64,000 nucleotides of DNA from Antedon mediterranea (GCF_964355755.1 NC_092675.1:30662912-30726911); one strand, 5' to 3'. Positions 5,249 to 34,962 are shown, counted from the first letter of the stretch. The notes: a model not told the origin generated them from the sequence alone. Numbers and translations are program-made.

Positions 5249-7615
5249 GTGGCGTTTATTGTTTCTCTGTCAGCAGTACCTACCAGTACCACTGACTGCA
5301 CCCCGCACGCTGCAGTGCATGCCAGGAGGAGGGAAAATCCTTCAGCTAGGAATCAAAACAAACTGTGTCTTTAATTAGCACTATGACGTGTGTAATGATA
5401 TTTATTGATAAAACACTAGAAAATATAACAATGCATTTGTAATGGTTTATAGAATTTAATAAAAATAGACTCAAAAGATTCCTGAATGTCTGTTTTTATA
5501 GGCCACCGTCTGTTTGACTGCGAGGCACGTAAACACACACATGCACTTACTGTGTGTACCTTTTCTGAGTGAGTCAGTCAGTCAGTCAAACAAATTTATG
5601 ACAAATTGTATTTTACTAAAAATTCAACCGAAATAGACAAGTTTGAGTTTTGACATGACAAAAGAAGCCACTGATAAATATATAAAACATAAGGAAAATA
5701 AATTTAATGTTCTATTTACCCCTCCATTCCTTGAAATAGTGAAGAATGTCTACAGAATTACAGAAGATAGGCTTAGAAAATCTGCAGGTAGCTGTACAAA
5801 GCAAAATGGCGAAAAATTAGGAGTGGGCCCTCAACGTTAATTAATTGACCATCCATCTTTTTCGCGCGTTTTTATACTCGGTGTGTTGCGCAGCAATGGT
5901 ATACACTATAGTAGAGCAGTTAATGACATGAGCTGTGCATTTTATTACCAAAGCATGAAACTTGGCACAAAGTTTCTTTGATGTATATAGATTCAAAATA
6001 TCGGGGGGTGCCAAGTGTCCAACGTCCGGTATGGCGGCCATCTTGATTTCAAAATGGCCACCATAAAAACAAAAAATGTTCATATCTTGGCAACTATACA
6101 CATTAGAGACTTAATTCTGGTCTCAAATTGTTCACAAACTATGTATTTCTATTTGCTCTAATGAAAAGTTTCGTCTAAAAATGACCGGAAATGACGTTTC
6201 TTACAGTTTGACCTTTGACCTTGTATTTGTATATCTCTGTAACTACTGGTCATTTTCAATCGATTTTGGTGTCATTTTGTTCAGAATAAATACATTTATA
6301 TTTGTAGTAATGAAACATTTTCACATAAATTGACCGGAAATACAATTTATGACCTTTGACATTAATTTATTGATTTTTAATTATGTGAATATACTGTAGG
6401 TGGTTTTTGTTGGTCTAAAGTGCACCTAATTTTGAACTTTAACCTGATAGGCGTAATTATATTAAATGATTAATGGACTTAAATTGTATATAGTACATAA
6501 AATTGGTAAACATTGTGCTTGGTGGTACCATTAGTTCAATGATGTTGGCACCTTCTGATTCGCTAAAAGTTTTAATAGTTTGACAGAGGAAATAACATAC
6601 ATGTTATTGAATACCGTAAAACCTCGAAAAGGTGATAGTATGAGCTTCTTTTCGAGACAGACTGTATTTGATTGTCAAATGAATATAGTATGATGATCGT
6701 GTTTATATCAATATATTATTAATGACCTTACAAAGAACCCTTTCTATTTCAACAATTAAGCCACAGTTATTCTACAATTTATTGTTTTCCAAGTGGTAGG
6801 CCTATTTTGATTGCATCTTATTTTTGTATTCTTCCTCGGTTAATATGGTCCTAACCCTCCTTCTTTGTCTGTAGATGATCTTATACCCCATTCTTTGTCT
6901 GTGGATGGTCTTTACCCGCTTCTGTGTCTGTTGATGGTATTATTACACCCCTTTCTTTATGTGTGGATGGTCTTACACCCATTTCTTTGTCTGTAGATGG
7001 TCTTACACCCCTTCTTTGTCTGTGGATGGTCCTACACTCCCTTCTTTGTCTGTGGATGGTCCTACACCCCTTCTATTTCTGTGGATGGTCCTACACCCCC
7101 TTCTTTGTCTGTGGATAGTCTTATGCACCCTTCTTTGTCTGTGGATGGTCTTACACCCCTTTCTTTGTGGACGGTCTTATACCCCTTTCTTTGTCTATGG
7201 ATGGTCTTATACCCCCTTCTGTGTCTGTTGATGGTATTACACCCCTTTCTTTGTCTGTTGATGGTATTAAACCCCTTTCTTTGTGTGTGGATGGTCTTAC
7301 ACCCCTGTCTTTGTCTGTAGATGGTCTTATAATCCCTTCTTTGTATGTGGATGGTCTTACACCCCTTCTTTGTCTGTGGGTGGTCTTACATCCCCTTCTT
7401 TGTCTGTGGATGGTCCGATGGTCCTACACCTCCTTTTTTGTCTGTGGATGGTCTTATACCCCTTCTTTGTCTGTAAGTGGTCCTATACCCCTTTCTTTGT
7501 CAGTGGACGGTTCTACACCCCCTTCTTTGTCTGTGGATGGTCTTACACCCTTTTCTTTTTCTGTGGACGGTCTTATACCCCCTTCTGTGCCTGTGGGTGA
7601 TCTTATACCCCCTTA

Positions 7616-7740
7616 TAACAACTTTATTTAAAAACGGATGCAACACTTGAATCACCATATTGGTGTTTTTCACAAGGCCGTTACTTACTACAAAACTATT
7701 TATACTATTACACAAGTTATCAATTACAGTACAAAAACAA

Positions 7741-7779
<39 letters not shown>

Positions 7780-10461
7780 TTTCATGAAAAAATATAGAGT
7801 TTCAAGTATATTTTATCTTTGGTCATTTATCATTTTTTTAAATATATGTATATTAGGAGCTGTAATTGCATTTGAGTTTATAGCATTTAAACTATTCCAT
7901 AGCTTTGCGCCAGAATACGAGAAACTTTTCTTTTTATACTCAGTGTTTGCCTTATGTAAACTTAGAATATCTTTTGATCTAGTATTATATGTTTGTTTGC
8001 GTTCATAGAATCTGTTTCTTAAGTAGGATGGTGTCAAGTTATTCATTATTTTATACATTGTGACTGCTTCGTTGTAATATTGTTTTTCTTCTAAATTAGG
8101 CCAATTTAAATCTTTGAGCGCCTGTGAGCTAGAGTCATACCTAGATGTATGTGTAATTATTTTAGCCGCTCTATTTTGGAGTACTTGGAGTTTATATTTG
8201 AGGGTTTGGTTACAACGACCCCATACTACATTGCAGTAGTCAAAATGGTGGGCTATGATAGATTTGTACATTAATGATTGAATATTTTGAGGGAAAATAT
8301 TGCTGCATTTTTTTAGATAGTACAGACCTGATATTACTTTATTTTTCACCTGATCTATTTGTTTATGCCATTTTAAATTTTCATCGATAATAACACCTAA
8401 ATGTTTACAGTTATTTACCTTTTCAAGTTTTGTACCGTCTATATTAATATTAATATCCATGTTAATCAATTTATTTAATTTTTGATGTGTTCCTAAAATC
8501 ATATATTCAGTCTTTTTAATGTTTAGACTTAATTTGTTACTTGCTAACCATAGTTGTACATGTTTTAGATCAGTATTTACTTTGCTTATTATATCGTGTA
8601 TGTCTTTAGATGCATAATATAACGCAGTGTCATCTGCGTACATGCTTACATTTACATGAGAAACTGAGTTAGGTAGATCATTAATATACATGATAAATAG
8701 AAGGGGCCCTAATATTGATCCCTGAGGGATTCCACAAACACTATTAGACTTTACCGAATCAACATTGTTAATATTAGTAATATGTGTACGATTTGTTAAA
8801 TAATTTTCAAACCATTTGATAACATGATTAGCAAAATTAAAATTGTGTAGTTTTTTTATTAGTATCTGGTGATTAACAGTGTCGAAAGCTTTTTTGAGAT
8901 CAAGCATTATTAGTCCTATGTATTTACCATTTTCAATACTGTCAATCCAATCTTCAGTTATATTTATTAATGCCGATGATGTCGAGTAATTTGGCCTAAA
9001 TCCAGATTGTTGATTGTATAATTTAGGGTTGATTTGTGGATAGAGTTGGTCAAAGACAGCGCGTTCAATAATTTTTGATAAAATTGGTAGTACAGAAATT
9101 GGCCTGTAGTTAGATGGTTCACTTCGGTCGCCATTTTTAAAAATTGGGCATATTCGTGCATTTTTCCATTTACTTGGGAAGTCGCTGGTTCTTAGAGATA
9201 AATTAATTAAAAATGTAATGGGTTGTACAATTGAGTTGATTGCTAATTTTATTAGTTTAGCAGGAATTTCATCAGTTCCTGTAGCCTTTTTGTCAGATAA
9301 TGATAAAATTTGTTTATATACATATTCCTCGTCAACAAGTGTGAAATTGATTTTGTCTTCACCTTGATTTGGGTATTCATAATTTACATGGTTATTTTCA
9401 AATTGAGGAATTTGTTTAGCTAGGTTAGGTCCTATGTTTGCAAAAAACTCATTTAAAGTATTAGCTATCTTGTAAGAATCTGTTTCAAGGCCATTTATTG
9501 TATTTATACTATTTATAACACTTTTTTTATTCTTAGATGGTACAATATATCTTATGTTTTTCCAGATTATTTTGGAATCTTTTGTATTTAATTGTTCAGA
9601 GAAATAATTTTTTTTTGATCTCCTGATATCGTAATTTACTTTGTTTTTTAATTCACGGTATTCGTTCCATAATTGAGGACAATTTTCTTTACTCGCTCTT
9701 TTTTTCATTGAGTCACGTTTTCGCATTTGTAATATTACATTTTTTGTGAGCCATGGACTATCTTTATTTCGAACCCGTTTTTTCTTTAAAGGTACATGTT
9801 TATTAACAATTTGTAAAAACTTGTCTTCAAAAAACTGCAGAGCGTCATTCACATTTGTATATGAAGTTATTTCATGCCAATTTACATTTAACATATCAAT
9901 TTGTAGTTTTTCCTCATCAAGGTTATTATAGTTCCTTTTTGTTTTATATTTATGGTTATGTTTTGGTTTTTCTTCTTTACCAATGACAGCGTAAATAGCT
10001 GAATGATCACTACTTCCTGTGTTAAGTACACCCGAGGAAGAAATTCGGTTTGGAAAGGATGTATAAAAATGATCAATCAGAGTTTTACTTTGGTTTGTTA
10101 TCCTTGTCGGTTCAGTTATAATTTGTGTTAGAAAATGGTTATTAGTTATATCCATTAATTTTTGTGTATAGCAAGTAGGGTTTTGTGAAAGTGTGTCACA
10201 ATTGACATCTCCTATTATTATTATTTCTTTGTTTAGACATTCGTTTTCTTCTAAAATTTGTTCAAAAATATCTAAAAGTTGAATTTTTGAGTTTGGTGGG
10301 CGGTACCATGCTATTAAAATGATTGGTTTAGTTTTTGGTTTACAAAGTTCGATTACTACTATCTCAAGCTCCATTTTCATGAAATCATTTCTTAGTTTAC
10401 AAGTAAAACATCCTCCTCTATTTACATAAACTGCAACCCCTCCCCCTTCCCTATTTCTGTC
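7616..10461 (-). mobile_element. 5'-truncated non-LTR retrotransposon (CR1/L2 group, Crack/Daphne-like)
   Basis: ORF2 is open from about 10461 (DRNREGGGVAVYV, an APE motif) to 7813. The 3' UTR has a poly-T tract and a terminal AATAAAGTT. It inserted within one satellite unit. Confidence 0.9.
7813..10380 (-). CDS. LINE ORF2 fragment: partial apurinic endonuclease plus reverse transcriptase
   Basis: Motifs YRPP, GDVN, TLIDH, SDH (APE) and NYRPIS, DLKKAFDTV, GIPQGSILGP, YADD, KHLGV (RT). 855 aa without a stop. Confidence 0.92.
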   Translation of the reverse strand: MKMELEIVVIELCKPKTKPIILIAWYRPPNSKIQLLDIFEQILEENECLNKEIIIIGDVNCDTLSQNPTCYTQKLMDITNNHFLTQIITEPTRITNQSKTLIDHFYTSFPNRISSSGVLNTGSSDHSAIYAVIGKEEKPKHNHKYKTKRNYNNLDEEKLQIDMLNVNWHEITSYTNVNDALQFFEDKFLQIVNKHVPLKKKRVRNKDSPWLTKNVILQMRKRDSMKKRASKENCPQLWNEYRELKNKVNYDIRRSKKNYFSEQLNTKDSKIIWKNIRYIVPSKNKKSVINSINTINGLETDSYKIANTLNEFFANIGPNLAKQIPQFENNHVNYEYPNQGEDKINFTLVDEEYVYKQILSLSDKKATGTDEIPAKLIKLAINSIVQPITFLINLSLRTSDFPSKWKNARICPIFKNGDRSEPSNYRPISVLPILSKIIERAVFDQLYPQINPKLYNQQSGFRPNYSTSSALINITEDWIDSIENGKYIGLIMLDLKKAFDTVNHQILIKKLHNFNFANHVIKWFENYLTNRTHITNINNVDSVKSNSVCGIPQGSILGPLLFIMYINDLPNSVSHVNVSMYADDTALYYASKDIHDIISKVNTDLKHVQLWLASNKLSLNIKKTEYMILGTHQKLNKLINMDININIDGTKLEKVNNCKHLGVIIDENLKWHKQIDQVKNKVISGLYYLKKCSNIFPQNIQSLMYKSIIAHHFDYCNVVWGRCNQTLKYKLQVLQNRAAKIITHTSRYDSSSQALKDLNWPNLEEKQYYNEAVTMYKIMNNLTPSYLRNRFYERKQTYNTRSKDILSLHKANTEYKKKSFSYSGAKLWNSLNAINSNAITAPNIHIFKKMINDQR

Positions 10462-12895
10462 ATTTCTTTGTCTGTTGATGGTATTACACCCCTTTCTTTG
10501 TCCGTTGATGGTATTACACCCTTTTTTTGTATGTGGATGGTCTTATACACCCCTTTCTTTGTGTATGGCTGGTCTTGCACTCCTTTAATTTGTCTGTGGA
10601 TGGTCTTATACCCCTTCTTTGTCTGTAAGTGGTCCTATACCCCTTTCTTTGTCAGTGGTGGATGGTCTTACACCCCCCTTCTTTGTCTGTGGACGGTTCT
10701 ACACCTCCTTCTTTGTCTGTGGATGGTCTTACACCCCTTTCTTTTTCTGTGGACGGTTTTATACCCCTTCTGTGCCTGTGGGTGATCTTATACCCCCTTC
10801 TTTGTCTGTTGATGGTATTACACCCCTTTCTTTGTCCGTTGATGGTATTACACCCCTTTTTTGTATGTGGATGGTCTTATACACCCCTTTGTGTATGGAT
10901 GGTCTTGCACTCCTTTAATTTGTCTGTGGATTTTTATTTCTTTGTCTGTGGATGGTCTTATACCCCCTTCTTTGTCTGTGGATGGTCTTATATCCCCTTC
11001 TTTGTCTGTGGATGGTCTTCTCCCCTTCTTTGTCTGTGGATGGTCACACCCCTTCTTTGTCTGTGGATGGTCCTACACCCCTTATTTGTCTGTAAGTGGT
11101 CCTATACCCCTTTCTTTGTCAGTGGATGGTCTTGCACCCCCTTCTTTGTCTGTGGATGGTCCTACGCCCCCTTCTTTGTCTGTGGATGGTCCTATACCCC
11201 TTTTTTTGTCAGTGTATGGTCTTATACCCCCTTCTTTGTCTGTGGACGGTCCTACATCCCCTTCTTTGTCTGTAGATGGCCTTACACCCCTTTCTTTGTC
11301 TGTGGATGGTCTTATACCTCCTTCTTTTTGTGTGGATGGTCTTACACCCCCTTCTTTGTCTGTGGATGGTCTTACACCCCCTTTTTTGTCTGTGGATGGT
11401 CTTATTCCCTCTTCTTTGTATGTGGATGGTCTTACAATCCCTTCTTTGTCTGTGGATGGTCTTACACCCCCTTCTTTGTCTGTGGATGGTCTTACACCCC
11501 CTTCTTTGTCTGGTCCCACTACTTTGATTGATTAAATTAGACATTGTTTCTTGTATGATTAGGAAACCAAGACCTTTAAAGTGAAAGTCCACAGGTGGAT
11601 GCCTAAACAGGTCTTGTACAGAACAGTATATTGTAGGTCCATGTCACTAATTTGAGGATTACTTGAATAATTATATTGAGATGTCTTTTACGAACTGATT
11701 TAGTTCGGATTTTGCTAAAAAATCAATGATTAGAGAAAATCGAGGAAAAGGATTCAGATGAAAGGTTTACAGCAAAGGCCCATTACCATAAAAATGGAGT
11801 ACATTTTTTTAGATGCAACGAAAAAACGATTGACACATAACAGTTTAGCAAACATGTCGGCATAGATGAGCTCAGTGATCTGTCATACTTTATGCCTATC
11901 CTATCACATCAAAAGTTAAAAATTCAGAATAATAATTCCGTGTCATTTATTTCGGTAAAAAAATTAGGTGCATTTATACCAATTTAACCACATACAGTAT
12001 GTTCACATAGTTAAAAGTTATAAATTGTATTTCCAGTCATTTTATGTGAAAATGTTTCATTACTACAAATATAAATGTCTTTATTCTGAACAAAATGACA
12101 CCAAAATCGATTGAAAATAATCAGTAGTTACTGAGATATACAGATAAGAGGTCAAAGGTCAAACTGGAAGAAACGTCATTTCCGGTCATTTTTGGACGAA
12201 ACTTTTCATTAGAGCAAATAGAAATATGTGGTTTGTGAACAATTTAACACCAGAATCAAGTCTCTACTGTTTATAGTTGCCAAGATATTAACACTTTTTG
12301 TTTTTATGGTGGCCATTTTGAAATCAAGATGGCCGCCATACCGGACGTTGGACACTTGGCACCCCCCGATATTTTGAATCTATATACATCAAAGAAACTT
12401 TGTGGAAAGTTTCATGCTTTGGTAATAAAGTGCACAACTTGGCTATTTTTATGGCGTTAACTGCTCTACTACTATAAAATCGGAGCAGCTATAGGAAGAT
12501 AGACCAGGGAGAGATGTAAAATCTCCCTGGATAGACATACACTAAACTACGTATAACATTACATATACACAATAAATTATAATTATGCAATAATAATATG
12601 CCTCTTCCCACCCATATAATATTAATTTATAATCTATTGTTGTTACATATGCTTGTACTAGGCCTGGCCCTACATACATAAACAAGAGGTATAGTTACTC
12701 TGTTCCTTGAGTTTTTGGTGCGATTAAAAAAATAAATCAATAGAAACAGAAATTTGTTTAGACCTTTTTAAAATCTTCTTGCCAATTAACTATAACTGTG
12801 TTGACGTATGATTTGACGCGTCAGCTAATTTGTTGACGCTTTTCACCAGGGGAGAAAATTTAAAATGTAGCGATGTTGTGAAATTTGAAAACGTA

Positions 12896-14146
12896 ATGAA
12901 TTTTATTAGGGCAATTTTCAGATCTTCAAAGGAAGTAAAGAAGTTGATTGGAACGGACCATTTGGGAAATAAATATTATGAAGTTCCAGAAGATGCTAAA
13001 GTATTAGGTAATTAAGTAAGGCATATAAAGGCTATACAGACATCTACCTAGGCTAGGGTCAGGTAGCCAACGGCGTAGGAGGACTGGTCGGACCAAACTA
13101 ACTAAAATGACTTCAGAGAGAGGGAGCGAGAGAGAGAGAGAGAGAGAAGAAGCGGCCTAGAATAAGAGGTGATAGGTGGCAGCAGACTGACTAGTTTATC
13201 TCTCACAAATAAAACTGACAGGTCATGTATGTTTTATGTTAAAACTTACCTATATATTTCAATACTTTCAATATTTTTTTTTTATTTTTCATATATATTT
13301 TACAGGTGAAAAGCTAAAAACTAGAAGGTTTGTGGAATCTAATATAAGTCATTATGAATATGAACCAGGAATGATACCATATGAATGGGAAGGTATTTAT
13401 AGTATTCAACTCATTTCTATATGAGTAAATTTAGAATATTTTCACAAAGTAGTAAATAATCTAGTTTTATATAAGTTGTGATTATACACATTTTTTATGT
13501 ATAAACTTTAGCATGGATGCGAGGAAATCGCAAATTGCCTCCAAGTGCCGAGGAGATCGCTGGTAGAGAACAACAAACAAAAAGTGTGCAACAAAAAGCA
13601 AAAGAACTGGAAGAAAATGAAAAACAGGTATTTTGAATCAAATACTTGCTGTCTTTGAATTACTGTATAACACAACACACAGATTTATTTATAAAAACCT
13701 TATCAATCCAGTAACAAATATTAAACCAACTCGATTGGGAATTTAAAATACCGTAAATGTTGATGTATGGTATTTGTTTTAATAGGCAGAATTTACTAAC
13801 ATTCAAACTGCTGAAGAAGTAACAACAGAATCGCATACTAAACCTGAAGGTAGGGGCAATTTAGCTTTTAAAGGCTGTAGCGAGAGGTTAAAAATAAACG
13901 AGGCAAAGATGCTTTAATATATGACGAACTGTGCTGGGGGATCTCATGCTGGCTATGGCCCTGCTTTTCAAAACAGCGATTAATATGCATAATTTGTAAT
14001 TGTACTTTATATCACCCCTATTAAAACGTGTTGTTGTTCTAGGACATGCTTCTGCACCTGTATATAAAAAAATTGATGGTGAGAGTGATGCTGTCAGCAC
14101 AGGCAATGAATTTCAACCAGCAGCTTGGAAACCTGGAAAGAAGTGA
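12896..14146 (+). CDS. NDUFAF2: NADH:ubiquinone oxidoreductase complex assembly factor 2 (NDUFA12-like), 5 coding exons
   Basis: Exons 12896-13007, 13306-13392, 13512-13627, 13786-13849, 14043-14146, all GT-AG and in phase. Motifs IGTDHLGNKYYEVP, IPYEWEAWMRGNRKLPP, GHASAP...FQPAAWKP. Confidence 0.93.
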
Positions 14147-15556: not shown

Positions 15557-16613
15557 GTTCTAAAATAATAAAATGAGTTTATATTAATATAAGTCAGGGT
15601 TTATATTTTAAGTAAAAGCAATTTCCATATTTGAAAAGACTAGATCTTGATTATTTAATTTAAAAAACTCCAACTGGAGGAGTATCACTCAATGTGTAGA
15701 TAGAGGTTGAGGAGGGGGAAAGCTAGTCAAACTTGGGTATCAGTATTGTAAAAACTGAATTGAATTTCAAAAACCTGTGACTACGTACAGAAGTCCATTC
15801 AAATGTTGTAAATGCACACAACACAAAGGTTTAAATTCTTAATTAATGATTGAATCATAATAAAAACAAACATACTAAAAACCACAAACATTTTGTTTAC
15901 ATAGAGATAGTGGAGAAAAGTCTAATAAGTGTAGCAGTACAGTAATAATAGTAGTATTGTAAACTACTATTCCTGCAACATTCCCAAGTACTACTATAAT
16001 ATTAATATTGACCGGAGATTTACCCTATTTTTAATCCTATATAACCACACCCTTTGATTGAATACAGTACTTTTAGAGTACACCGTACCCAAACAATTTC
16101 AAGACCCACCCACAAACACTCAACAATTTAAAAACTGAAAGACAACTCAACAAATATTGAAAACTGTTATGAATTATATGAATAATAATTTCAATAAAAT
16201 GTAAAATAAGTGATCCCAATTCAATACAGTAAATATAATGTTCTGTTGTTTTGCTAGGCCTAGACTAGTGGTCGGGTCTGGGCGGATCAAGCTTCCTCCC
16301 GTCGTGGAATCCGGTGACAGAAAAGCACGATTGATATAAAAAAAAATACGCCAATACGGCCTAGCTAGGAGGAGGCCTAGGCCTAGAGTTATTTTCAACC
16401 CCTCAAATTAGAAACTAGTCATAATTTTGAAAAGATTTATTGTACATTACCTGATCACCTGTTATTTTTTGTGCACGACCGTATAACTATAGTTACCGTG
16501 TAATAAGTTTAAATTATATTTAAACTTTTAAAGAAATTTCACTTCGATTACAGTACTAGGAGGCTAGGCCTATAAACTACTATACCTACCGTACTACAAA
16601 TTCACCGCGTCAC

Positions 16614-18676
16614 GAGGTATATTCAGAGCGTCATTCTGGCGACTGGAGCGTTCTCTACTTCTCTACGGAGCGCCATTTATGCCTTTATTAACTTTAATAG
16701 AAATAGTACTACGGTAACTGCTCAAGTGTCACCCAATTTAACACCAAGGTTGCACAGTGACATAAAATGGAAATAAGTCACTGATACATACATTGTGACT
16801 GTGCTGTACACTGTTCTCAAATGGACCTAATTTGAAATCACTTAAGTTTAAATGTCTTTTCGTATGTTAATACACTGTGCTCAAGTGGACACGATTTGTC
16901 ACCAGTGGAGCACAGTGATATATAAACAACAAATAAAATAAGTTACTGAATGTTAATATCTTTTCGTATGTTAATACACTGCTGTGCTCCAGTGGATCCA
17001 ATTTGGCGCCAGTGGTGGAGCACAAATAGTCACATACAAAAACATCGAAAAAAAAATACTTTTGAAAATACTTCAAAAATATTTCAAACTTCCAGGTATA
17101 TATAGGCCATGTTAAATATCGGTTACTCAATAAAAATTTCAAGCCAAATCAATGATTTTAATAACTTGTCTAAGATAAAAACTTAGTGTGGAGAGTGCAC
17201 CTATCATTGAAATATGAAATAAGTTGGGGCAGAGCTAAATGAAAATAGAGCCCAGAATTGCACTTATACTTATTACTATACATAATCGATCATCTATGAT
17301 AATTATGGTAAGTGTTGACCGCGAATGACTAACAATACCATCTTTCCCACTACACCTGCACACCCATTGCATAACAACGCACGACATACCAAACCGTTTC
17401 GTACACTACCTGTGATGAAAATATAAAATTCAATTTCTTTTAAAATTGAGGGCGGCAAACATAAAATTTACGAGATCGAATACAGGTTGAAAAAAAAAAT
17501 TAAATAAAAAAAAAAGATGTTAAATGTGCTCTCCCTGCCTCAGCACTAAGGCCCTGCCACAGCCTTTTGGGGTCGTTTCCAGCACATCACCAGATGCATT
17601 GATGTTGTCGCCTCATGATGTGTGGTGGAAAGGGGGACGTATAATTCTGTGAACCCCAAACACAGTGGCCGGGCCGCATACCTTTAACTCTATTCCACCG
17701 ACCAGCGTGGGAATCGAACCCACGACATACGTGTTGTGAACACGACGCTCAGGCGCCTGAGCTAACTGATCATTTTGGTTTTAACAAGGTTAATGTGATA
17801 TTTATGATGTAATGAGGAATTACGTAATACACGTACAAATAGACTATTACCAGCTGTTCAATTCAGTTATCTACTAATTTGTGGCCTAACGGGTAATGCT
17901 CAGCTTTGGGCGCTCTCAGCTCTAGTAGATAAATCCTCTAGATTTTGTTTTAATAAAAAATAAATAAATAAGGAAAAATAAATAAATAAAAAAATAAATT
18001 AATGAATATTGTTTTCTTTTATTTTGAAAGAGAGATATTTTGAGGGTTGTAAATGTCAGGCCTAAAACAAGTGGACCTTTTTAAAAATCAGAAACAAAGC
18101 ATGGCATTATTTTCCATTAAATAGACTGCCATAAAACCTCGAAAAGAAGCCTATGTGCTCCTTCATTTTAGTACTCTTGAGTGGGCTTCTTTTCCACATG
18201 AGTTCTTTTCGAGATTACTTTAGCAAACTAAAAGAGGGGAGCTGAACATTTTTTATTTACATGATTTGAACAATCTTCTAATGTAAAAATTTACATTTTA
18301 ACTGTTTTAATCTGCTAAAGGGAACACAAAGGATATTATATATTATTCCTGAGGATATTGATCTAAACGTCGAGAAACTCAACAGTTCTTTTTAGAAACT
18401 AATATACGTGGTGTACCGCAAACTTAATTATCAACAAAGGATTTGTTTTTCTTAAATTTATTAAAATTGAGTGACTTTATTTCTATATACAACTGTGCTC
18501 AATTGAACCCAATTTGTCACCAGGGAAGCACAGTGTATTAACATACAAAATATATTAAAAATTCAGTGACTGGACCAGTTACCGTAGTACTATTTCTATT
18601 TCTGAACTAAATAAAGGCATAAATGGCGCTCCGTAGAGAAGGCTCCATTGTCAGAATGACGCTCTGAATATACCTC
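16614..18676. mobile_element. Non-autonomous TIR element with GAGG...CCTC ends and GCGTCAC duplication
   Basis: TIRs of about 105 bp starting GAGGTATATTCAGAGCGTCATTCTG. Flanking direct repeat GCGTCAC at 16607-16613 and 18677-18683. Internal CTGTGCTC...GAGCACAG subrepeats. Confidence 0.8.
17490..17771 (-). mobile_element. tRNA-derived SINE (tRNA-Val(CAC)-like head at 17700-17771)
   Basis: Minus strand GATCAGTTAGCTCAGGCGCCTGAGCGTCGTGTTCACAACACGTATGTCGTGGGTTCGATTCCCACGCTGGTC folds as a cloverleaf with a B box but a degenerate A box/D loop. About 200 bp of body and a T-rich tail follow, with no immediate Pol III terminator. Confidence 0.65.
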
Positions 18677-19597
18677 GCGTCACACGTCCTCCAGTGTGAT
18701 CGTTGTTTTTTTTTTGTAGGGGGGTTTTTATGTGTTGTTTTTGTGTGTATAGAACAGCCTATTTGCGTCAAGATTCAGCGAAACGCGTTTTCAGTTTTAT
18801 TAGTGATGATACAGAACAGTATTACAGTTGCTTTTTATTAAAATGTATTTTTATTATTCTGTTTTTTAAAATAAAATTGTACACACTAATTAAATCACAA
18901 AATGAAGTGATTTAAATTTATATTCAATATAACTATTTGTTTTTTAATAAATTTCACATGCAGACACATCTATTTTCATAATTGCTTCTCTATGCTTTTC
19001 TCAATATATAAATTCAATTCATCTGTTCTGTATGGCCTTAATTCTGTCTAATAGTGACTTTTACGAAACAGGAGTTTCAACGGTTGATTAATTTTACGCG
19101 TCAGTAAGCGCATTCTTACGCAATTATTGACCTCATATTGACATATATATTAATAAATTATTTATTGGTCAAATTTGTGATGTCCTTGTTTGATGAAACT
19201 CTTCATATATATTTAAATTCAAGACTATGTAAACTAAATAATAAACCCATTGTTCTACAAAGATAGACATTGTGGAAACATATTTACAGTTGTACAAATA
19301 ACAATAAATAGAAATACACTAAGGGTCTATTTACATGTGTTTTAGAAACATTTGTTTAATATTAATATCACAGTGTCTAAAATTGAATTACACGTTTTCT
19401 TGTCATTTGTTTGTTTGTAGTTGGAATGTTTAAAAAGTTCATTTGCAGTTTAGTTTCTAGACAGTGATTTCGCTTAATACAGTCTTCATAAAAAGAACAA
19501 TATTTTGGCACACATGGCGTGTCATAAATATTAGCTAATGATGGCTACTTTTAGTTTTCAATAATCATTTTTGAACTGGTAAATCTTACATATGGCT

Positions 19598-19830: not shown

Positions 19831-19861
19831 CATCGCATTAAAATCAAAGCGAGAGATTTCT

Positions 19862-22800
19862 TCAATCCTCATCTGAGCTCCAATTATCTACATATTTCTG
19901 TTCTTTCTTATTCTGAAAAAAACACCAAAGAGCTTCCAATTTAATCACTGTATTAGGACACTCATATGGATAAAACAATGTAAAGAAAATAAAAAAAAGG
20001 TAACTTAAAAATCATACCATGTCAGGTTGCTGATCGCGACAAACTTCAGGTTCCCAAATTAAAATGCTACTGTCATTACTTCCACTGTACAGCTCCTGAA
20101 AGTCATGAATAAAAGTATGTTAATAGCGTGCTTTATATATCGGTGTGTATAGAGCAAAGCTACTTAGTCCTTAAAACACAAATAGTGCTTTATATCAATA
20201 TGTATAGAGCAAAGATACTTAGTCCATACAACAAAAAGAGTGCTTTATATCAATATGTATAGACCAAAGATACTTAGTCCATACAACACACAGAGTGCTT
20301 TATATCAATATGTATAGACCAAAGATACTTAGTCCATACAACACACAGAGTGCTTTATATCAATATGTATAGACCAAAGATACTTAGTCCATACAACACA
20401 CAGAGTGCTTTATATCAATATGTACAGAGCAAAGATACTTAGTCCATACAACACACAGAGTGCTTTATATCAATATGTATAGACCAAAGATACTTAGTCC
20501 ATACAACACACAGAGTGCTTTATATCAATATGTACAGATCAAAGATACTTAGTCCATACAACACACAGAGTGCTTTATATCAATATGTATAGACCAAAGA
20601 TACTTAGTCCATACAACACACAGAGTGCTTTATATCAATATGTATAGACCAAAGATACTTAGTCCATGCAACACAAAGAGTGCTTTATATCAATATGTAC
20701 AGACCAAAGATACTTAGTCCATACAACACAAAGAGTGCTTTATATCAATATGTACAGACCAAAGATACTTAGTCCATACAACACACAGAGTGCTTTATAT
20801 CAATATGTACAGACCAAAGATACTTAGTCCATACAACACACAGAGTGCTTTATATCAATATGTACAGACCAAAGATACTTAGTCCATACAACACACAGAG
20901 TGCTTTATATCAATATGTATAGACCAAAGATACTTAGTCCATACAACACACAGAGTGCTTTATATCAATATGTATAGACCAAAGATACTTAGTCCATACA
21001 ACACACAGAGTGCTTTATATCAATATGATGCTTTATATCAATATGAATAGAGCAAAGATAATTAGTCCATACAACACACAGATAAATGAAATGGGTAGTG
21101 TACTGTAAGTGCAAGGAAAATTTGCCATAGATTTTTTCTAAAAAGTTTTTTTTTTCAAATGGTCAACAAACCTGGAATAAAGGATGGAATGTGCAGGCAT
21201 TGACTCTACTATAATGTCCTGTAAGATTGACCACTGGTCTGCCTGAATGAATTTCAAAGACACAAATCTCTCCAGATGAAGGCACAAACACCAGATCATC
21301 GGATGCATCACAAGAAACACTCATCTTCAAGTTTCTTCTCGTGTCATTTATAACTTTACCATAGTTTACCTGAAAAACAATTTATTCAGTGAAAAATTAC
21401 TTTAATTAAGTAATGAAAACAACCCATAACCCTTGATAATTTCTTTTTTTTTAAATGCAACTTTTTAAGAACTATTATATGATATAATGAATTCAATTCA
21501 TCTTTTATTGGTCTAATTCATATAAAAATAGAAAACAGAAAATCTTTGTTAATACACTGCAGTTGAAAATACATGGAAAAATGTTTAAACAATGGCAAAG
21601 TACAGAAAATATTTAAAAGTTATAAAAATAAATAATATATATAATAAATAATTTTGGCAAAATTTATAAAAATTAATATATATATTACGATCCAGGTGTT
21701 CTCTTAAATAAAAAATAATATAATAAAATGACTTACCAATGTGTTTCTACCAGTCACTACATCCCATAATCGTAATCTGTCATCTGATCCACAGGTAAGT
21801 AAGTGAAGTCCATCACTTGTGAAGCACAGCCCAGTCACATAGCCATTATGTGCTGTACTTACTATTAGGATGAGATTGAATAATGACAGTTTTAAAAACT
21901 TATACAGAGGTTCAAAGTTGAACTATCAGGAGACTTTTTAAAAAGGTGCACGAACAATGTTATTTTAAAATGATTGGGCATCAACATCTATAGTAAACAA
22001 TAGGTAAACAATTTTTAACTATGACATAATGTATATACATATCCAACCAAAAGAGGCCTAAAGTAGTAGAGCATAAATGATAGATTTCTTTTGTGTGTAT
22101 AAAATAATCGGGAGAAAAAATCACACATTTAGTGGGAGATTGGAATACTAGAAAACTCCCATAATTATCCAGAGTTGGGAGGTCTTTTAAACAACAAAAT
22201 TAAATGTGAAAAACTGAATTTACAGAAAGATTCACATAGTAATTGAATGATACACTGGTAATTGAATACATAACAATTGAATCATACCAGCTTCAGTGGT
22301 AGTTGCTCCCTTCTCTCCATTGTGTTGATCTAGAACCATCAAACTAGCTTTTGACTTGCGAACATCCCACAGCATCACACGGTTATCTTTACTATGTACA
22401 AATGTAAACATATGGTCATTAGATTTCATAGATTCATAACTAAAATACAATCTAGTAAATCTAAATTGTAAATCTCTGTCCACACTATCAAACTAATTTG
22501 ACAAAAAAACATGGTAGTGTATGCCCAAATATGGTAGTGATGTGACATCATCATATCCATATATGTGCACATCACATTTTTTTGTCTAATAAGGTTTGAT
22601 AGTGTAATAATAATAGTTCATTCTTATATAGCGCATATAAGCAAGCTCTAAATGCGCTGAACATTATTACCCCAGTCATTTCCTGATCAAACACCTATGG
22701 AAACATACTCCCATATATGCAGCTAGTAATCAGCGCAAAGTTGTGTCTTGATCTAACCGGGTTCCCAATTATACACCTGGGTGGAGAGAGGCAAACTTTA

Positions 22801-25517
22801 AACAAATACCTGGCTGTTGCTAATAGGTACTCTTCTTTACTAGACCATTGGATGGCCATTACAGAACCCTTGTGACCTTTCAATGTGTGTGTCGATGACC
22901 CATTTCGTAGGTCACACAATGTCACTAGTGATGATGCTGTTGCAACTATAATACAGAAAAGAGATTTGTACAAAAGTTTTAATAAGGCCAAATAAAAAAA
23001 CATACTTGTTAAGCGTCACCGCCTGCTCCTGATTATCCAGCCGCCTCTCTTTTTATTTTTTTTTTTTTTTTACCGATATACAACGGAAAGTTCAGCGGCC
23101 AGGCCCAGCTCCAGAGTAGGGCTCGAAATTCACGCTAGCAAACTAGGATTTTGCTAGTAGATTCTTCATAATTGCTATTTGAAAATTTCAAAACTAGCAA
23201 ATGTTTGTTAGGCTAGTGTAATTTTTGAAAAATACGTACTTTTTAGCTTAGACAACGCTAGCCGCCGATCGCTCTATGTCGACAACGGCAATTTGGTGAA
23301 AACAATTGTTTCATTTACACGCCGCCGATTTACGTCAAGGAAACGCGAATAGCACCGTGAATCATGTAATGTGGTAAACAGCAAGCTTTTTCCCCAACAC
23401 ATTAAATCATGTGCATTTAGTACGTCGCTGAGTATTACATCATCAGTCACGTGATTACAGAATACGCGATTATCAATTTAGGGATTTAACGAAATAAATA
23501 TTTTGCCTACACAGTGGTCGAAGCGCGTTTTTTTATAGGTTCGTAAATAGGAAACACCCCATACATAATGGACTCTACCAATTTTGTTTACGATGATCTC
23601 GCGCTCGAGATCGGCACACCACGAGGTCCTGTTGGGCGATGGGTTTCCTTATGCCTGGTTTACCTGTGGAATAATTACATACACTTTTTGCATCACAACT
23701 TTAAATACTGATTTACACAGCAATTGGCAAAGGGTTCATCAAAGAAGAATGAATACGTTGAATAAAAATTCACTTAAGAAATGCCGTAAGCTGTTTTCAA
23801 ACTATAAATCAGCCCACTATTTAGTATTATTGAGACCAAATCATGCTTCTCGCGATAGGAAATTTCCTGGATAGATGAGTCGAGCGAGAGACGGCGGATG
23901 GCCGATGAGTGAGGTGGGGGTAGCACCTTGGACGGATTAGTTAGCCTAGGGCCTACAATTTCGCTTGGTGGCAATTAAATTTAATGTTTTAATTACGTCT
24001 GGATATAAACAATACAAAACTCAATTTTGTCATAAGCAATAATATTTCATACATAGTCAATTTTGTTCTGTTTCGCATTTTAAAAGTTTGACGTTTCGTC
24101 CTAAAAAAAGTGGGGCAAAACGCCCACCGCGCAAAAATATACCTCTATAAAAAGTAAAAAAAAAAAAAAAAAACCGTCCCCCCGCCCCTGAAAATGTATG
24201 AGGGTGTGACGCTTAACAAGTATATTTTTTTATTTGGCCTAATATTGATTAAGTTGAATAATTTGTTTGATTAAATTTAAAAGTACATAAAAGTACTTAA
24301 TTATCACGTGAAGAAATAAGTTAGGATTTCTCCATGGTTAGCACAAAAGCTTATGTATATTCTCAACTTCAAACAAATAATATTTGGAGTATAAAGAATA
24401 TTTAACACAGAAGATGGGTTTGTAAACTTACCACTAATAAGACAGTGCTTCGTAGCAATCTGTGACATGTGATGGCAGTAGACTGGTTTATCAAAGCGGA
24501 AACTCTCTGCTGGTTTTAGTGTATTTGTATCCCATACTTTGAGAATGTTGTCCATTGCACTTGAAGTAAACATACCAGTGTCATGTGGGTACCATTGCAC
24601 TGTCTCTACACTGTACTTGTGAGCTACTGAATTTGACCTGAAAGTGTCAACATCTTATTAATGTAATTCTTCTTTCAAATACCTTATAGTTCTAAATTAG
24701 TGTGTGGACTTTGTTTAAAAATATCATGATCTGTTCTGATCTGATCTGATCTAATAAACTGTAGAATATATTGTATATAAATTGGATTATTAATTCAATA
24801 AGATAATCTCATATCAGAGTTGTGCAAAACATGTGACCAATTAAATAGTTGCAATATTAACTGCATTACAGAATGTAAAGTCCTCGATTTTTGTTTGGAA
24901 TGGTTTAAAAATGTCTTCATCTGTCCTAATATATTATATATAAATTGGATTACTATATTCAATAAGATAATCTCATATCAGAACAGAATGTGCATGTGTT
25001 CCCGAATAAAGTTACCTGTTAACCGAACAGACTAAAGGACACGTGAAGCTTGAGGGTGCTGGTTTACATTCAATGTCATATATTGCGATTCCACTGTCAG
25101 CTCCGCCAGACAACAAGCTGCAAAAACATCAATAATACAATAACAAATATACTCTATAAAACATTCATTCCACAATCATATAAATATAAAAGAATAGAAA
25201 ATAACAGATTTTAATAACATTAATGTCGGTTTTCTACTGGCAATTTGGTTCGGAAGTTGTCTTAATTCTTGTAAAATAAACATTTCAGTAAATTATTCTG
25301 AAAGTTAATCTACTTACGACTTTAATAATGAGTGTAGTAGCACTTACTATTTTCCTTCAGCAGGGTCTATATCAAGACAGTTGACAGCACTTTGTATACG
25401 TTGTACATCCCTGGTCTTGCTCAGTTCTAAGCTGTATATTCTTCTTGTGATCTCAGCTCTCATCAGTTCCAGACTGCTCACAATACCTCTTTCCTGGTAA
25501 TTCAGGAATTTCAACAT
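19862..25517 (-). CDS. ERCC8: DNA excision repair protein ERCC-8 (Cockayne syndrome A, WD40), 9 coding exons
   Basis: Exons 25517-25348, 25117-25016, 24637-24432, 22945-22810, 22391-22288, 21861-21737, 21369-21172, 20095-20018, 19912-19862. Motifs [54 protein letters not shown] and C-terminal DNWSSDED. Confidence 0.95.
20128..21081. repeat. 55-bp minisatellite, about 17 copies, filling an ERCC8 intron
   Basis: Unit AGTGCTTTATATCAATATGTATAGACCAAAGATACTTAGTCCATACAACACACAG. Confidence 0.95.
22474..22606. mobile_element. Small palindromic MITE family (Harbinger-like), copy 1 of about 7
   Basis: TIR GCTCTGTCTACACTATCAAACT / AGTTTGATAGTGTAGACAGAGC with internal TATCACTACCATATTTGGG repeats. Other full or partial copies at about 30440-30539, 39394-39530, 42238-42393, 51600-51773, 55806-55888 and 61351-61496. 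Confidence 0.8.
22607..22796 (-). mobile_element. SINE 3' part with CORE-like segment and L2-like tail
   Basis: Minus strand TTGCCTCTCTCCACCCAGGTGTATAATTGGG...GCGCTATATAAGAATGAACTATTATTATT. The same tail recurs at about 63575-63657. Confidence 0.55.
22986..24239. mobile_element. Non-autonomous TIR element with TAA TSD (Zator or PIF/Harbinger type) in an ERCC8 intron
   Basis: [TAA]GGCCAAATAAAAAAACATACTTGTTAAGCGTCAC ... GTGACGCTTAACAAGTATATTTTTTTATTTGGCC[TAA]: a 34-bp TIR with one mismatch. Confidence 0.85.
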
Positions 25518-26325
25518 TGTTACATCTCTCTTAGCTCATCATCATGCTAAGCCTAAAAAGGAAAATTAAATTAAATAAAACCAACAATTAGTATTAGTAT
25601 AGTAAAATATGAACTCACTCCTGAAGTGAGAATACACATCTCACTTATCATGGTGAAAGGAACATTTATTGCTTTAATAGTTTTTGTCAATTGAATAAAT
25701 TTTGCATGGTGTTGAATTGATTAAAAAAGCTAAATCTAAAACAACTACAGAAGGAAAACATTATAAATAGAATATAAATTGTAAACACCATTTAATAATT
25801 AAAACTGTTATATTATAGTGTTACATACGTCAAAAATTCAGAGCAGAGACACCACCGAATGACCCCCTACATCGGCAAGGTAGCTAAGCCTAGTGAGGTT
25901 GGGCCTAGATAGTCTAGACCTAGCCCGTGGCCGGCCGTGTAAAAGAGGCCTGAAGAGAGCCCGATTACTCTAGCTAGAGGGAGTTAGGCCTAGGCCATAA
26001 TAATATGCTAGAAGGTAGATCTATATATCTTTTGCACTTATAGACATACACACCAACTTCTAAATGTACTCACTTAATGACTTATATTACTAACGTTAAC
26101 TAATAATTATGAAAAATTGTAAGATTAATAAGCGTTAAATAATATTCCTATTCGACGACGAAAACAATCTCCATTTTTCGATGATTTTTTGTTTATAAAA
26201 GACAATTGAGGGCGTGCTTTTAATTTTTATTTGATGTTCATTGAACCATGAAATAATACACACAACAACACAAGTGAGAACTGCTGAAAAAGGTTGTTTT
26301 CATATAAATCTCTTTTGATTTCATC
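25518..26325. promoter_or_regulatory. Probable bidirectional promoter region shared by ERCC8 and NEK8
   Basis: Divergent start codons are only about 810 bp apart, and the interval includes an ERCC8 5' UTR intron (acceptor near 25552). Confidence 0.65.
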
Positions 26326-29300: not shown

Positions 29301-32300
29301 TAATAATATGTTATATTTATTACACAGTGTCCAGTTGTTGGAGCTGAGAGTATGTTACCAGGTGCTACTGACCCCGAGATGCCATCGTATATCCCTCGTT
29401 TTCTTGAGGGTCAGTCAGCAGTGACCATTAAGCATGTCTCATGTGGCGATTTATTCACCGCTTGTTTAACTGGTAAATAACACATTTTCTAATACTTTTT
29501 GTTTTGCTGATAACTTATATACAGTATAAACTTTATAAACTTTCTTTTGTTATTAAAGCCTGTTTGTTGTTTGGTTTGCTGTGTGTAAAGTTAAAAATTA
29601 TTTTAAATCAAGATCAGCCTTTTTCTTTTATGGGTGAACTGTAAAACAAACTCTATCTTTTACTCAGTTTTGGTGTATTTTAGGTTCTAATTTTTAAATC
29701 TCTTTCTTACATTCTACCACATTTGCCATAAGTGTCCTAAAGTAAATCTAACTTCATTCTAGATCGTGGAATCCTAATGACATACGGCAGCGGAGCACAT
29801 GGCTGTCTGGGCCACGGAAACTATCATGATGTACCTCAAGCTAAAATTGTTGAAGCTTTACTTGGTTATGAGATAACAATGGTGTCATGTGGTGCATCAC
29901 ATGTCATGGCAGTAACCAATGAGCATGAAGTATTTGCTTGGGGTCGAGGTGACAATGGTAAAACTAAAAAATGATTTTTCTTTGAAATTTGAGATTCAGT
30001 TAATTTTTCAAATTACATAGGATTATAAGATGAGATGAAATAAATAAAATAATGAAAAAAATGGAGGGAAAAAAACAAAAGAGCAATGCTTGTTTTTATG
30101 GCTAACCTTATACGTATACAATGACAATAAAAACAAATTACTTACACAAAGCAAATAAAGGCTAACATTTTGTTTAAATAAAGCTCACATTTATTATGAA
30201 TTATTATATGATTGTTTTGATATTTTATGTAGGACGCTTAGGACTAGGAAATGCTGATTCCACGTCATCACCACACCCTGTACCCCTTGCAGACACTGAT
30301 CAAGCTTTATCAGTTCACTGTGGAGTCGACTGCTCAGCTTTACTCACAACAAACAAACAACTCCTAGCCTGTGGAAGTAACAGGTATTTATTACATTATA
30401 CTTTCACAATAATTTCTTATTTAGAATTGTCTTAGCAGTGCCTAAAAAAAAAATGTGATGTGTCCATATATGGACCACATTTGGGCATATTACTACCATA
30501 TTTTGACACATCACACTTTTTTGATAGTGTAGACAGAGCTTTTATTTTTATTTTATTTATTCATTTCCCAACCAACAGTGAGCTCATGGTTCACCACTTA
30601 CAGGAGGGAACACAGACAAACACGAACATATACAATAACAAACATTAAACTAAACTACTAACAATGTTACGAAACTTACGGAAATTATTACTAAAGATAT
30701 CTAACTCAGGGTTTCTTAAAGTAAAAGAATTATAAGTTTGACTTAATCTACTAATAAAACCATTTTTTAAAACATTTACTCTACTAAAAGGAATATGAAA
30801 AGTAGTATTTCTTCTAAGACGACGACTAGGGACTCTAAGATAAAAATTACTAACTAAATTACAGTCAAATAAAGAATTAATACATTTATACAAAAAAACA
30901 AGATCAAAAAAGGTTCTACGAGACTCAGGAGATCGGACATGGAAATGAAAGTCAGGATTCTGGTTGTGGCTGATGTAGCGTAAAAAACGGTTATGCAGAC
31001 GGTTATATGCTCATACAAGCATACAGAAAGCATTACAATAATATTGACTGTTTCTGCTTGCAGGTTTAACAAGTTAAATCTTGACTGTGTTGAGTCAGAT
31101 GGTAACTGCACACAGCAAGTTGAAGATGTGCACATATTCACACATGCAGGCACAGACCCCCTCAACCAAGTACAAGTAAACCATGTTGCCTTAGGAACAT
31201 CACACTCTGCTGTCATTACAGGTATCACTTGTTTTAACATAGAAAAGTGTACGATAGAATGTTAAGGCATTAACAGACAGCTTCTCGCAACGGCCTAAAA
31301 ACTACAGCCGACGCTATCTCAAGACAACTCATCTCGTCGGAATTGAACTCGGACCACACCGATGAGTCAAGACGTTCTGTTGTTCTGGTACAGGTTATTC
31401 CTCCACGTGTCCAAGTTGACTGAATGTAGTGTAATTGACATAGTTACAAACGTTATTATGAAATTTATGTTTTTTAATTGACAGATCAGCGTGAATGTTA
31501 CATGTCTGGATCAAACCTCTTTGGTCAGCTTGGGTTTAAGAATGAAGGTGAGGCAGCATCACGACAGCCCCACTTGTTAGATCTACCTGGCAGTGTCCAT
31601 GTTGACTTAATTTGCTGTGGTGACATGTTTACAACTGCAGTCACTGCTGGTGAGTGTAACTTTTTTGTTGTAAACAACTTCATTGTAAAAAAAACACCTT
31701 GTAATAACTGAATGACATACATTAAATGAGGTATGACCTCTGTAGGTATGACCTCTGTAGGTATGACCTCTGTAGGTATGACCTCTGTAGGTCAAGCTCT
31801 GCTAAAAAACGATTGAGGATTCTTAATTTGAATCATCTAATTGTTTCATTAAAAAATCTTTAAATGTGATGAGTTTATGTAAATAATACCGTATTGTGTT
31901 TCCTTAGATGGAGAGGTTTTTTCATGGGGCAAAGCCTCTAGAGGGCGTCTTGGAAGGAAAGATGGTGAATATTTCAACCCGTCACCTTTGAATTTACAAG
32001 AAGGAGATGATGGGATAGAAGTCATCTCAATATCCAGTAGTCATGGCAGCACATTAATGGCTGCTAAAAGTAAGATTGTATTTCAAGTGTTTAGTTTAAC
32101 TTATAGTCCATGGGATTTAGACTTTTAACTCACACAAATTGCAAGAAAAGGTTTTTTTGATGAAATGTGTTCTTTAGACCCTACTGAACACATTTTTCAA
32201 CGTTACAGTAGGACATTTTTCGACAACAGGAAGTAGCCTAATTTGCATAATTAAAAATGGCGGCCATTTTTAATAACGTACTCTGTATCTTGGAAACCGC

Positions 32301-34962
32301 TAGTCACAGATACTTAATTATGGTGTCAAAATCATTAGAATATATGTTTTTATATTCACTTTAATGAAAAAGTTTGTCCAAAAATGAATGGAAGTGCTAT
32401 TTCTAACATTATTGACCTTTGACCTTGATTTATCATATCTCAGCAACCACTAATCGGAGATATACAAATTAGGGCTTAAATTGTTCAGAAACTACACATT
32501 TATATCCAGTCTAATGGCATGTTTTTGCAAAAAATGGCGGATTCTAACATTATTGACCTTTGACCTTGATTTATCATATCTTAGCAACCACTAATCTGAG
32601 AGACACACAATATGGCTCAAACTGTTTAGAAACTACATATTTATATTTAGTCTAATGGCATGTTTTTTGCAAAAAATGGCCGATTCTAACATTATTGACC
32701 TTTGAACTTTGCACTACATAAAATCGCATAACTTTGAAAATATTGTACATATGAAATTATATTTAGTGTCAAATTATTCAGAACATACATGTTTCTATAG
32801 AGTCCAATGACACATTATGTCCAATAATGACCTATTGTATGGTTATTAACATTTGAACTATATTTGAAAAGGATTTTTAAACCCGGAATCTTCTTCATGT
32901 AGGCATTCATTAGAACATGTGATTTGGCACTACTTGTTTAGAATATGGTGGTAATTTAAAGTGCATGTAACCAGTTGATTTAAATTAAATTTTAAAACTG
33001 AAATATTCACTTTAAAAAAAAATATTAGACTATGTATACATACATTATAGGTTTGGATTATTAATAAATTTTTAATTAGGTCTTACATCTTACTCAGGAG
33101 AAAGTTGGTGTTGACACTATTAACAGAGCCAACAAAAATGTAGTTTTTTTTATGATATATTGTACATACTTTAAATAGGCCATGCCATTTTGCAGGTTTA
33201 TTAACGTTTTTTTCAAGTTAGTAATTTATTTTTTGATCAAATTAAATTGCCATTAAATGGCATATTCAAAAAACAAATTTCTAAAGATTATTTAGTTTAT
33301 ATTTTGCTAAGGATAGCATCACTCTTGAGGGCATTCTTTTAGGTTGAAACATAGTCTTATTAAGAAGGCATTTTCTACTAATAGACGCATTGTTGACAAC
33401 TGGAATTTTAAAAGATCGATATTAATGCAACATATTTAGTTTAGTTTAATTAATTGGCTATCGAGACTCATAATTAGGCTGACCACCACTTGCAATATTT
33501 TCGCCGTATACAGTAAAAACCCCAGTTTCTTATGGAATTTATTTATTTATTTCAATAACCATATACAGTACGACTACTAGTCGTGTATAGTTTTTAACCT
33601 TTTATAACTTGTTTTTGTACTTTTTTTATGTGAATGTATTGTGTATGTACCATGTTTCTATGTGGTTTAATTTTTACCATTTTTTAACCATCAATTTTAA
33701 TGCTTTTAATATTATATAAATATATTGTAATTCAGCTTCAGCTGCGAAAACGATAAGAAATAAAATAAACAAACGTGTAAACTTGTAGGCAGTTTATGGA
33801 TGAATGCAATAGTTTATGCTTATAAATTTAATGTACCATGGCCTACTTTAAACTAAACATAATAAGTCAACATTGCAACTCTTACATTTTAGAGTGCCAA
33901 ATCACATGTTCTAATGGATGTCCACATGAAGAAGATTCCGGGTTTAAAGGCTTTTCAAATATAGTTCAAATGTTAATAACCATACAATAGGTCATTATTG
34001 GACATAATGTGTCATTGGACTCTATAGAAACATGTATGTTCTGAATAATTTGACACTAAATATAATTTCATATGTACAATATTTTCAAAGTTATGCGATT
34101 TTATGTAGTGCAAAGTTCAAAGGTCAATAATGTTAGAATCGGCCATTTTTTGCAAAAAACATGCCATTAGACTAAATATAAATATGTAGTTTCTAAACAG
34201 TTTGAGCCATATTGTGTGTCTCTCAGATTAGTGGTTGCTAAGATATGATAAATCAAGGTCAAAGGTCAATAATGTTAGAATCCGCCATTTTTTGCAAAAA
34301 CATGCCATTAGACTGGATATAAATGTGTAGTTTCTGAACAATTTAAGCCCTAATTTGTATATCTCCGATTAGTGGTTGCTGAGATATGATAAATCAAGGT
34401 CAAAGGTCAATAATGTTAGAAATAGCACTTCCATTCATTTTTGGACAAACTTTTTCATTAAAGTGAATATAAAAACATATATTCTAACGATTTTGACACC
34501 ATAATTAAGTATCTGTGACTAGCGGTTTCCAAGATACAGAGTACGTTATTAAAAATGGCCGCCATTTTTAATTATGCAAATTAGGCTACTTCCTGTTGTC
34601 GAAAAATGTCCTAACGTTGATAAATGTGTTCAGTAGGGTCTAAAGAACACATTTCATCAAAAAAACCTTTTCTTGCAATTTGTGTGAGAAAAGGGTCATT
34701 TTTTAGCTAAATCCCATGGACTATTAATGAGGTAGAGAGGTGTAATAAGCCAAAGGCTAGAGGGCATAGGACCCAACAAGTTACAATACAAACTACAAAA
34801 AAACAGTTTAAATTTCTCAATATTGCTTTCACATGTTTTCATGTTGTTTTTCATGATAGTTGACTGACTTTCACTTTTTTTAACTATTTACTTTATATAT
34901 TTTTTCATATATAAGCTAGATATCATTATAACATTGTTTTCTTACTGTTTTCAGCTAAATGA
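26326..34962 (+). CDS. NEK8: Serine/threonine kinase NEK8 (NIMA kinase plus RCC1 repeats), 15 coding exons
   Basis: Exons 26326-26372, 26723-26928, 27126-27181, 27478-27704, 27892-27973, 28153-28364, 28665-28735, 28825-29018, 29328-29472, 29763-29957, 30233-30383, 31064-31221, 31485-31649, 31908-32069 and probably 34955-34962. Motifs [64 protein letters not shown]. Confidence 0.95.
27705..27891 (+). other. U12-type (minor spliceosome) GT-AG intron in NEK8
   Basis: 5' splice site GTATCCTTG. Branch-like TTATCCTTGAT with its A 11 nt before the AG, and no long pyrimidine tract. The join gives the conserved [12 protein letters not shown]. Confidence 0.85.
30541..30990 (-). mobile_element. Decayed 3' end of a LINE (CR1/Jockey-like) in a NEK8 intron
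   Basis: Encodes [10 protein letters not shown]...[32 protein letters not shown], similar to an ORF2 C-terminus, followed by an (AATAA)n tail. Confidence 0.6.
31730..31792. repeat. 15-bp tandem repeat x4 (GGTATGACCTCTGTA)
   Basis: Direct inspection. Confidence 0.9.
32104..34723. mobile_element. Long-TIR (foldback) non-autonomous DNA transposon, Academ-like, in the last NEK8 intron
   Basis: [TTA]TAGTCCATGGGATTTAG ... CTAAATCCCATGGACTA[TTA]: TAG...CTA termini with 3-bp TSD. Near-identical TIRs of about 830 bp (32104-32931, 33893-34723) contain internal repeats of about 120-140 bp. Confidence 0.9.

Follow-up and report, generated by a model that had tools for sequence, protein, structure and literature searches.

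We investigated two transposable elements with terminal inverted repeats (TIRs) in a 64,000-nucleotide (nt) stretch of the Antedon mediterranea genome (GCF_964355755.1 NC_092675.1:30662912-30726911; hereafter the window, with positions counted from its first letter). These are element 1 (5909-12471, 6563 bp) and element 2 (32104-34723, 2620 bp), both unstranded, and both identified by their termini, flanking duplications and coding content as gene-less, non-autonomous Academ-type (AcademX/Academ-1) cut-and-paste transposons. In each of them, the inner part of the TIR begins at nt 26 of the left end and at nt 36 of the right end, a 10-nt difference of approximately one helical turn that a sequence-only reading of the window had likened to the 12/23 rule of RAG recombination signals.

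Element 1 is bordered by CTA target site duplications (TSDs; 5906-5908 and 12472-12474, both on the plus strand) and has a TIR of approximately 520 nt starting with TAG. Its left end, on the plus strand, consists of a terminal block of 15 nt (5909-5923), a short spacer of 10 nt (5924-5933) and an inner TIR (5934-6433); its right end, on the minus strand, consists of the same 15-nt block (12457-12471), a long spacer of 20 nt that contains an A5 tract (12437-12456) and an inner TIR (11960-12436). The two arms share 91-100% identity at a 10-nt offset up to nt 430, versus 17-35% at offsets of 0 or 5, and when the initial 445 nt of both ends are aligned globally, a single 10-nt gap suffices. The great length of element 1 is explained by a nested, 5'-truncated long interspersed nuclear element (LINE; minus strand, 7615-10463, borders approximate), which splits a 30-bp tandem array into a left part (6845-7614) and a right part (10464-11512), both unstranded, and is therefore younger than this copy of element 1. 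An uninterrupted stop-to-stop frame of 909 amino acids (aa; 7813-10542) was ruled out as an element 1 transposase, as it encodes the reverse transcriptase domain of the LINE (PF00078, E 9.5e-39).

Element 2 is bordered by TTA duplications (32101-32103 and 34724-34726, both on the plus strand), and its TIR, of approximately 830 nt, likewise starts with TAG. The left end, on the plus strand, consists of a 17-nt terminal block (32104-32120), a short spacer of 8 nt (32121-32128) and an inner TIR built of 141-bp subunits (32129-32931); the right end, on the minus strand, consists of the same 17-nt block (34707-34723), a long spacer of 18 nt that contains an A6 tract (34689-34706) and an inner TIR (33893-34688). 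For both elements, the end alignments bore out the coordinates, tips and spacer lengths that had been read previously, and with them the 10-nt difference between the ends. The element 2 arms had also been described as nearly identical, which holds for 668 nt at 100% identity, but this tract lies between two further indels, one of 5 extra nt in the left arm at approximately nt 101-110 and one of 2 nt at approximately nt 770-780. The offset between the arms is 10 up to approximately nt 100 and 5 thereafter, because of the 5 extra nt on the left. A host exon with an RCC1 repeat (31883-32070; PF00415, E 7e-07) lies approximately 33 nt upstream of element 2, which is probably intronic.

The spacers, previously considered to be unpaired, are mostly unalignable between left and right but retain 36-55% identity, and so are not wholly unpaired; this low identity means that left and right spacers are distinct in sequence, as opposed to being related by a clean insertion. 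Similarly, elements 1 and 2 had been presented as two different elements, and their tips do differ, but their TIRs share a unit of approximately 141-150 bp with 69-73% identity (in-window comparison, E 4e-25). From this shared unit, we regard the two as related families and not as separate inventions.

No transposase remnants were seen in the inner regions of either element, which are stop-rich throughout, and element 2 contains no frame of at least 120 aa. Both elements lack the DDE transposase and second nuclease gene of autonomous Academ elements, as expected of non-autonomous copies. Under the Repbase rule, a non-autonomous element is classified by the length of its TSD and by aligning its terminal nt 1-11 with those of a member, allowing at most one mismatch (PMC4455052; here and below, a paper given in brackets is cited for the portion of it that was consulted). 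Compared by eye with a curated bivalve Academ-1 library (PMC10294476, supplement file 24), the tip of element 1 equals that of Academ_A.kagoshimensis_4, and the tip of element 2 that of Academ_A.marissinica_59, each at 11 of 11 nt, these matches being of tip letters, with the TSDs of the library entries outside the comparison. The 3-bp TSDs of both elements (CTA/CTA and TTA/TTA) agree with the 3 or 4 bp reported for AcademX, and rule out AcademH, which has TSDs of 9 or 10 bp and a helicase (PMC10045372). A Transib or RAG-like identity was rejected on the TAG termini and the 3-bp TSD. The Academ identity proposed from the sequence-only reading was thus upheld, on both tip and TSD.

We searched for other copies in public read-set contigs of run X6, of a second organism (organism A) and of runs X3 and X10, the last two of which yielded 1 and 0 records, respectively, and are evidence in neither direction; for the long end of element 1, two of the four read sets returned nothing. 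Short and long ends alike exist in multiple copies, and the second organism shows the 10-nt difference as well. In run X6, the single-copy contigs flanking element 2 (depth about 290-310) end at 32129 and 34695, and element 2 itself has a depth of tens of thousands. In organism A, the right end of element 2 is present beside a different flank, and a contig ends at 34688, at the spacer border. For element 1, five X6 contigs carry other flanks beyond the long end at 12471, and in organism A a short-type end, also with a different flank, can be aligned to the long one when precisely 10 letters are omitted over 12440-12456. Depth in X6 is approximately 500,000 where the inner repeat of element 1 is common to both ends, and drops to 273,000 over its long spacer (single copy, 277), roughly a halving that is a weak hint only, because contig depth is no copy number. 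The earlier judgement that the inequality of the ends is not a product of decay was upheld.

We additionally compared the 5' ends (first 260-280 letters, approximately) of Academ-1 consensus sequences in the bivalve library (PMC10294476), covering 98 of its 100 such entries. Registers were counted by eye from the tip, after two missing terminal letters had been added back in each of three entries; several entries are near-duplicates, and related entries lack independence. The landmark of element 1 (AAGCA, or a sequence close to it) has its G at position 45 in the short end and 55 in the long end of element 1, and was found in 20 entries, at 44-45 in 13, at 54-55 in seven and in none between. 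The element-2 landmark, ATTGCA or a variant, lies at positions 38 and 48 in the short and long ends of element 2, and was found in 33 entries, at 37-39 in 21, at 47-49 in eight and elsewhere in four. Thus, 49 of the 53 library ends that could be placed by eye lie within 1 nt of a short or a long register. Binomial values computed for the registers (2e-8 and 2e-7) are not used as probabilities, given the kinship among entries and their placement by eye.

Related library entries also differ by similar lengths. Most clearly, A.marissinica_91 and A.marissinica_34/_58 have a common 17-nt tip and a common inner repeat, with 4 versus 15 nt between them, and other similar pairs differ by 11, 11, 11, 10, 9 and 13 nt. 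The library sequences fall into two length classes, the presence of one of each within an element lying outside what 5' ends reveal. The tabulation of spacers in other families, suggested from the sequence-only reading, recovered the two expected registers, but with a subgroup of 12 entries confined to one of them.

Two further features of the ends were noted. The A-tracts of the long spacers were discarded as a bending signal, being unspecific, as many short library ends also carry one. Head-to-head AAAATGGCGGCC-type words, presumably YY1-like, were found at 6031-6062, 12308-12339, 32254-32274 and 34552-34568, that is, 120-160 nt inside each element end, and are frequent in the library ends too.

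By analogy with other transposons, we lean towards a model in which an Academ transposase made elsewhere would bring a short and a long end together in an asymmetric complex. Each end comprises a tip of 15-17 nt and an inner repeat, set 25 nt (short) or 35 nt (long) from the tip. The catalytic core of the transposase would grip the tip, and the inner block would be held by a separate DNA-binding part, in the simplest case a module tethered to the core, or by another protomer, perhaps aided by a host protein that bends DNA. With a difference of one turn, the inner sites of both ends would face the same side of the helix, and the complex would tilt towards the short end, the long spacer being bent to absorb the extra length, in the manner of RAG 12/23 and P element 9/21 synapsis. 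Selection acting on such an unequal geometry would explain why tips and inner repeats are homogenised beside a difference in spacer length that has not been erased. The tips differ between the two families, yet are the same left and right within each, across a spacer that is not homogenised despite the long tract of complete TIR identity in element 2. The survival of the gap between homogenised tips and inner repeats therefore points to selection. The recurrence of the 10-nt gap in organism A, the contigs that stop at the spacer borders of element 2 and the two registers of the library ends also favour this model, as do precedents of tested or modelled function in the P element (9/21), in ProtoRAG, which prefers unlike ends, and in piggyBat, for which symmetric ends are inactive.

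The unequal spacing is a real feature of AcademX ends, and probably an ancient one. More tentatively, AcademX as a group may obey a strict long/short rule imposed by its transposase, in which case it would represent a widespread and still-active 12/23-like system outside the RAG/Transib line, whether of independent origin or descended from a more remote ancestor common to RAG-, P- and Academ-type enzymes.

Several observations weigh against a pairing requirement. The occurrence of a short and a long end within one element was observed in two elements only (2 of 2), and in element 2 the 5-nt indel amounts to half a turn, so that helical phase is lost deeper in. One decayed, single-copy element 1 end is approximately 19 nt shorter than the long form. 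In the library, 45 of the 98 ends were unplaceable, two of these carrying landmark-like words at intermediate positions, and four placed entries are off-register, at 46, 46, 50 and approximately 63 (the last being N-rich). Short library ends exceed long ones (34 versus 15), and the single register of the 12-entry subgroup fits symmetric families as well as a fixed orientation. Within the window, an unrelated element (16613-18677) has ends that differ by 9 nt, in a manner resembling slippage. Among known systems, most Transib families are symmetric (PMC1131882), and piggyBac can be engineered for symmetric ends (PMC11707139).

Some of these points suit an explanation in which the length difference is selected in the absence of any pairing rule, serving to tune activity, to order the two cuts or to position a host factor, with symmetric ends still able to transpose. 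The asymmetry of piggyBac ends holds activity back, and a modified enzyme can use symmetric ones (PMC11707139); it has also been argued that unequal TIRs affect invertebrate RAG-like enzymes rather little (PMC7204232). The surplus of short library ends and the single-register subgroup would likewise permit symmetric families. However, the difference is held at 10-11 nt across families with unrelated spacers, as a fixed protein geometry would predict, and run X6 gives a hint that the two ends are present at roughly the same dosage. We therefore consider tuning of this kind rather unlikely, though the main competitor of obligatory short/long pairing.

Both of these explanations fit the data better than a neutral origin, in which both families would have received, from the end of an ancestral Academ element, the same ancient indel that was left uncorrected ever since. 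Homology between the TIRs of elements 1 and 2 is compatible with such a relic, as are the further indels of 5, 2 and 21 nt between arms. The controls within the window are mixed in this respect: the TIRs of two other elements (4553-4738 and 22986-24239) are short and unsplit, and the 9-nt difference at 16613-18677 shows that unequal ends also occur in an unrelated element. Nevertheless, the two registers are maintained both in bivalves and in the host although tips, spacers and inner sequences have all been replaced from family to family, and a neutral gap would be expected to vanish when the sequence on either side of the spacer is homogenised, making a relic improbable. Finally, chance indels or assembly error in two copies, an explanation favoured by there being just two full elements readable at both ends, are highly improbable and largely refuted, as independent read sets contain both end types at high depth and with other flanks, and organism A shows the 10-nt gap again.

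We compared the elements with known systems of transposition. Elements 1 and 2 resemble Academ-1/AcademX in their TAG termini, 3-bp TSD, 11-nt tips and inner landmark words at equal distances from the tip, and differ in having no transposase or nuclease gene. In the P element, the terminal repeat and the transposase site are separated by 9 bp at one end and 21 bp at the other, which has been likened to 12/23, and a model of induced asymmetry has been proposed (PMC7776569). The likeness lies in the unequal spacing between tip and inner site; however, the P element has a 31-bp TIR, a 10-bp THAP site, an 8-bp TSD, a 12-bp difference and mapped binding sites, in contrast to the sequence evidence presented here. 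A bipartite end with spacers unequal by approximately one helical turn is likewise shared with RAG signals and Transib, several families of which have ends resembling the recombination signal sequences RSS12 and RSS23 (PMC1131882). RAG and Transib ends start with CAC, consist of a heptamer and a nonamer and are associated with a 5-bp TSD (PMC1131882, PMC7204232), whereas elements 1 and 2 have TAG, a tip of 15-17 nt, a long inner repeat and a 3-bp TSD, and we do not claim homology to them. ProtoRAG similarly prefers unlike ends (27/31; PMC8289069), but these are unequal by 4 bp, and piggyBat is inactive on symmetric ends (PMC11707139), but its ends differ in motif content and not by one turn.

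The unequal-end design is therefore already known from Transib, the P element, ProtoRAG and piggyBac, and Academ would add a further variant, of predicted function. The analogy with the RAG 12/23 rule can be extended, in that spacing in two classes one turn apart is also seen in bivalve Academ-1, but it is not new, having been printed for the P element and Transib. In the literature covered, to which Kojima 2020, Zhang 2016, Repbase Reports and most of the 33 supplements of the bivalve paper do not belong, we found no account of unequal ends in Academ. For Academ, PMC5751038, in the portion consulted, gives its distribution in fungi only; PMC12166591 and PMC5714489 merely cite it, and Academ text is absent from PMC3845634, PMC11071193 and PMC12730594.

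A superfamily with many young families of one-turn-unequal ends would provide an independent and testable model of asymmetric synapsis, and an orientation-aware tool for gene delivery might be possible. Any bearing on the origin of the 12/23 rule has to be set beside the symmetry of most Transib families and the ProtoRAG ends, which are only 4 bp apart. For annotation, consensus builders that merge both ends blur the termini of Academ elements.

Motif scans for further relatives returned 2, 0, 2 and 0 loci in viral contigs, 1 in genome contigs and 52 in metagenomes. None of 54 loci (2 viral and 52 from metagenomes) matched the element ends by blastn, and no Academ-like element was seen in the 8 of the 52 metagenome loci that were inspected for inverted repeats; the three remaining motif matches were dismissed as chance, lying in GC-rich or bacterial DNA. 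An index of other scanned stretches contained none that resembled these elements. Supplement file 25 of PMC10294476 contained no Academ entry, and a whitefly supplement searched for paired ends yielded copies of unclassified MITEs (miniature inverted-repeat transposable elements).

Other repeats were identified within the window. The element at 16613-18677 is a TIR element of 2065 bp that has CGAG at its termini and a duplication of 5 bp, CGTCA; its ends match for 26 nt, after which the left end is approximately 9 nt longer, apparently through an 8-nt tandem duplication. The element at 22986-24239 (1254 bp) has GG termini, an unsplit TIR of approximately 33 nt and a TAA duplication, and we take it to be Zator- or Harbinger-like. 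A 186-bp MITE with CAGT termini and a TA duplication (4553-4738) is presumably Tc1/pogo-like. A second LINE-type reverse transcriptase frame, of 498 aa, lies on the minus strand at 56529-58025. Near-perfect tandem arrays (97-99% identity) occupy 20146-21027, 44017-45901 and 53110-55464, with units of 55, 38 and 81 bp, respectively, and a family of dispersed repeats, with an internal unit of 21 bp, occurs in both orientations at 22470-22606, 30447-30542, 39398-39533, 42235-42396, 51596-51750 and 61425-61490.

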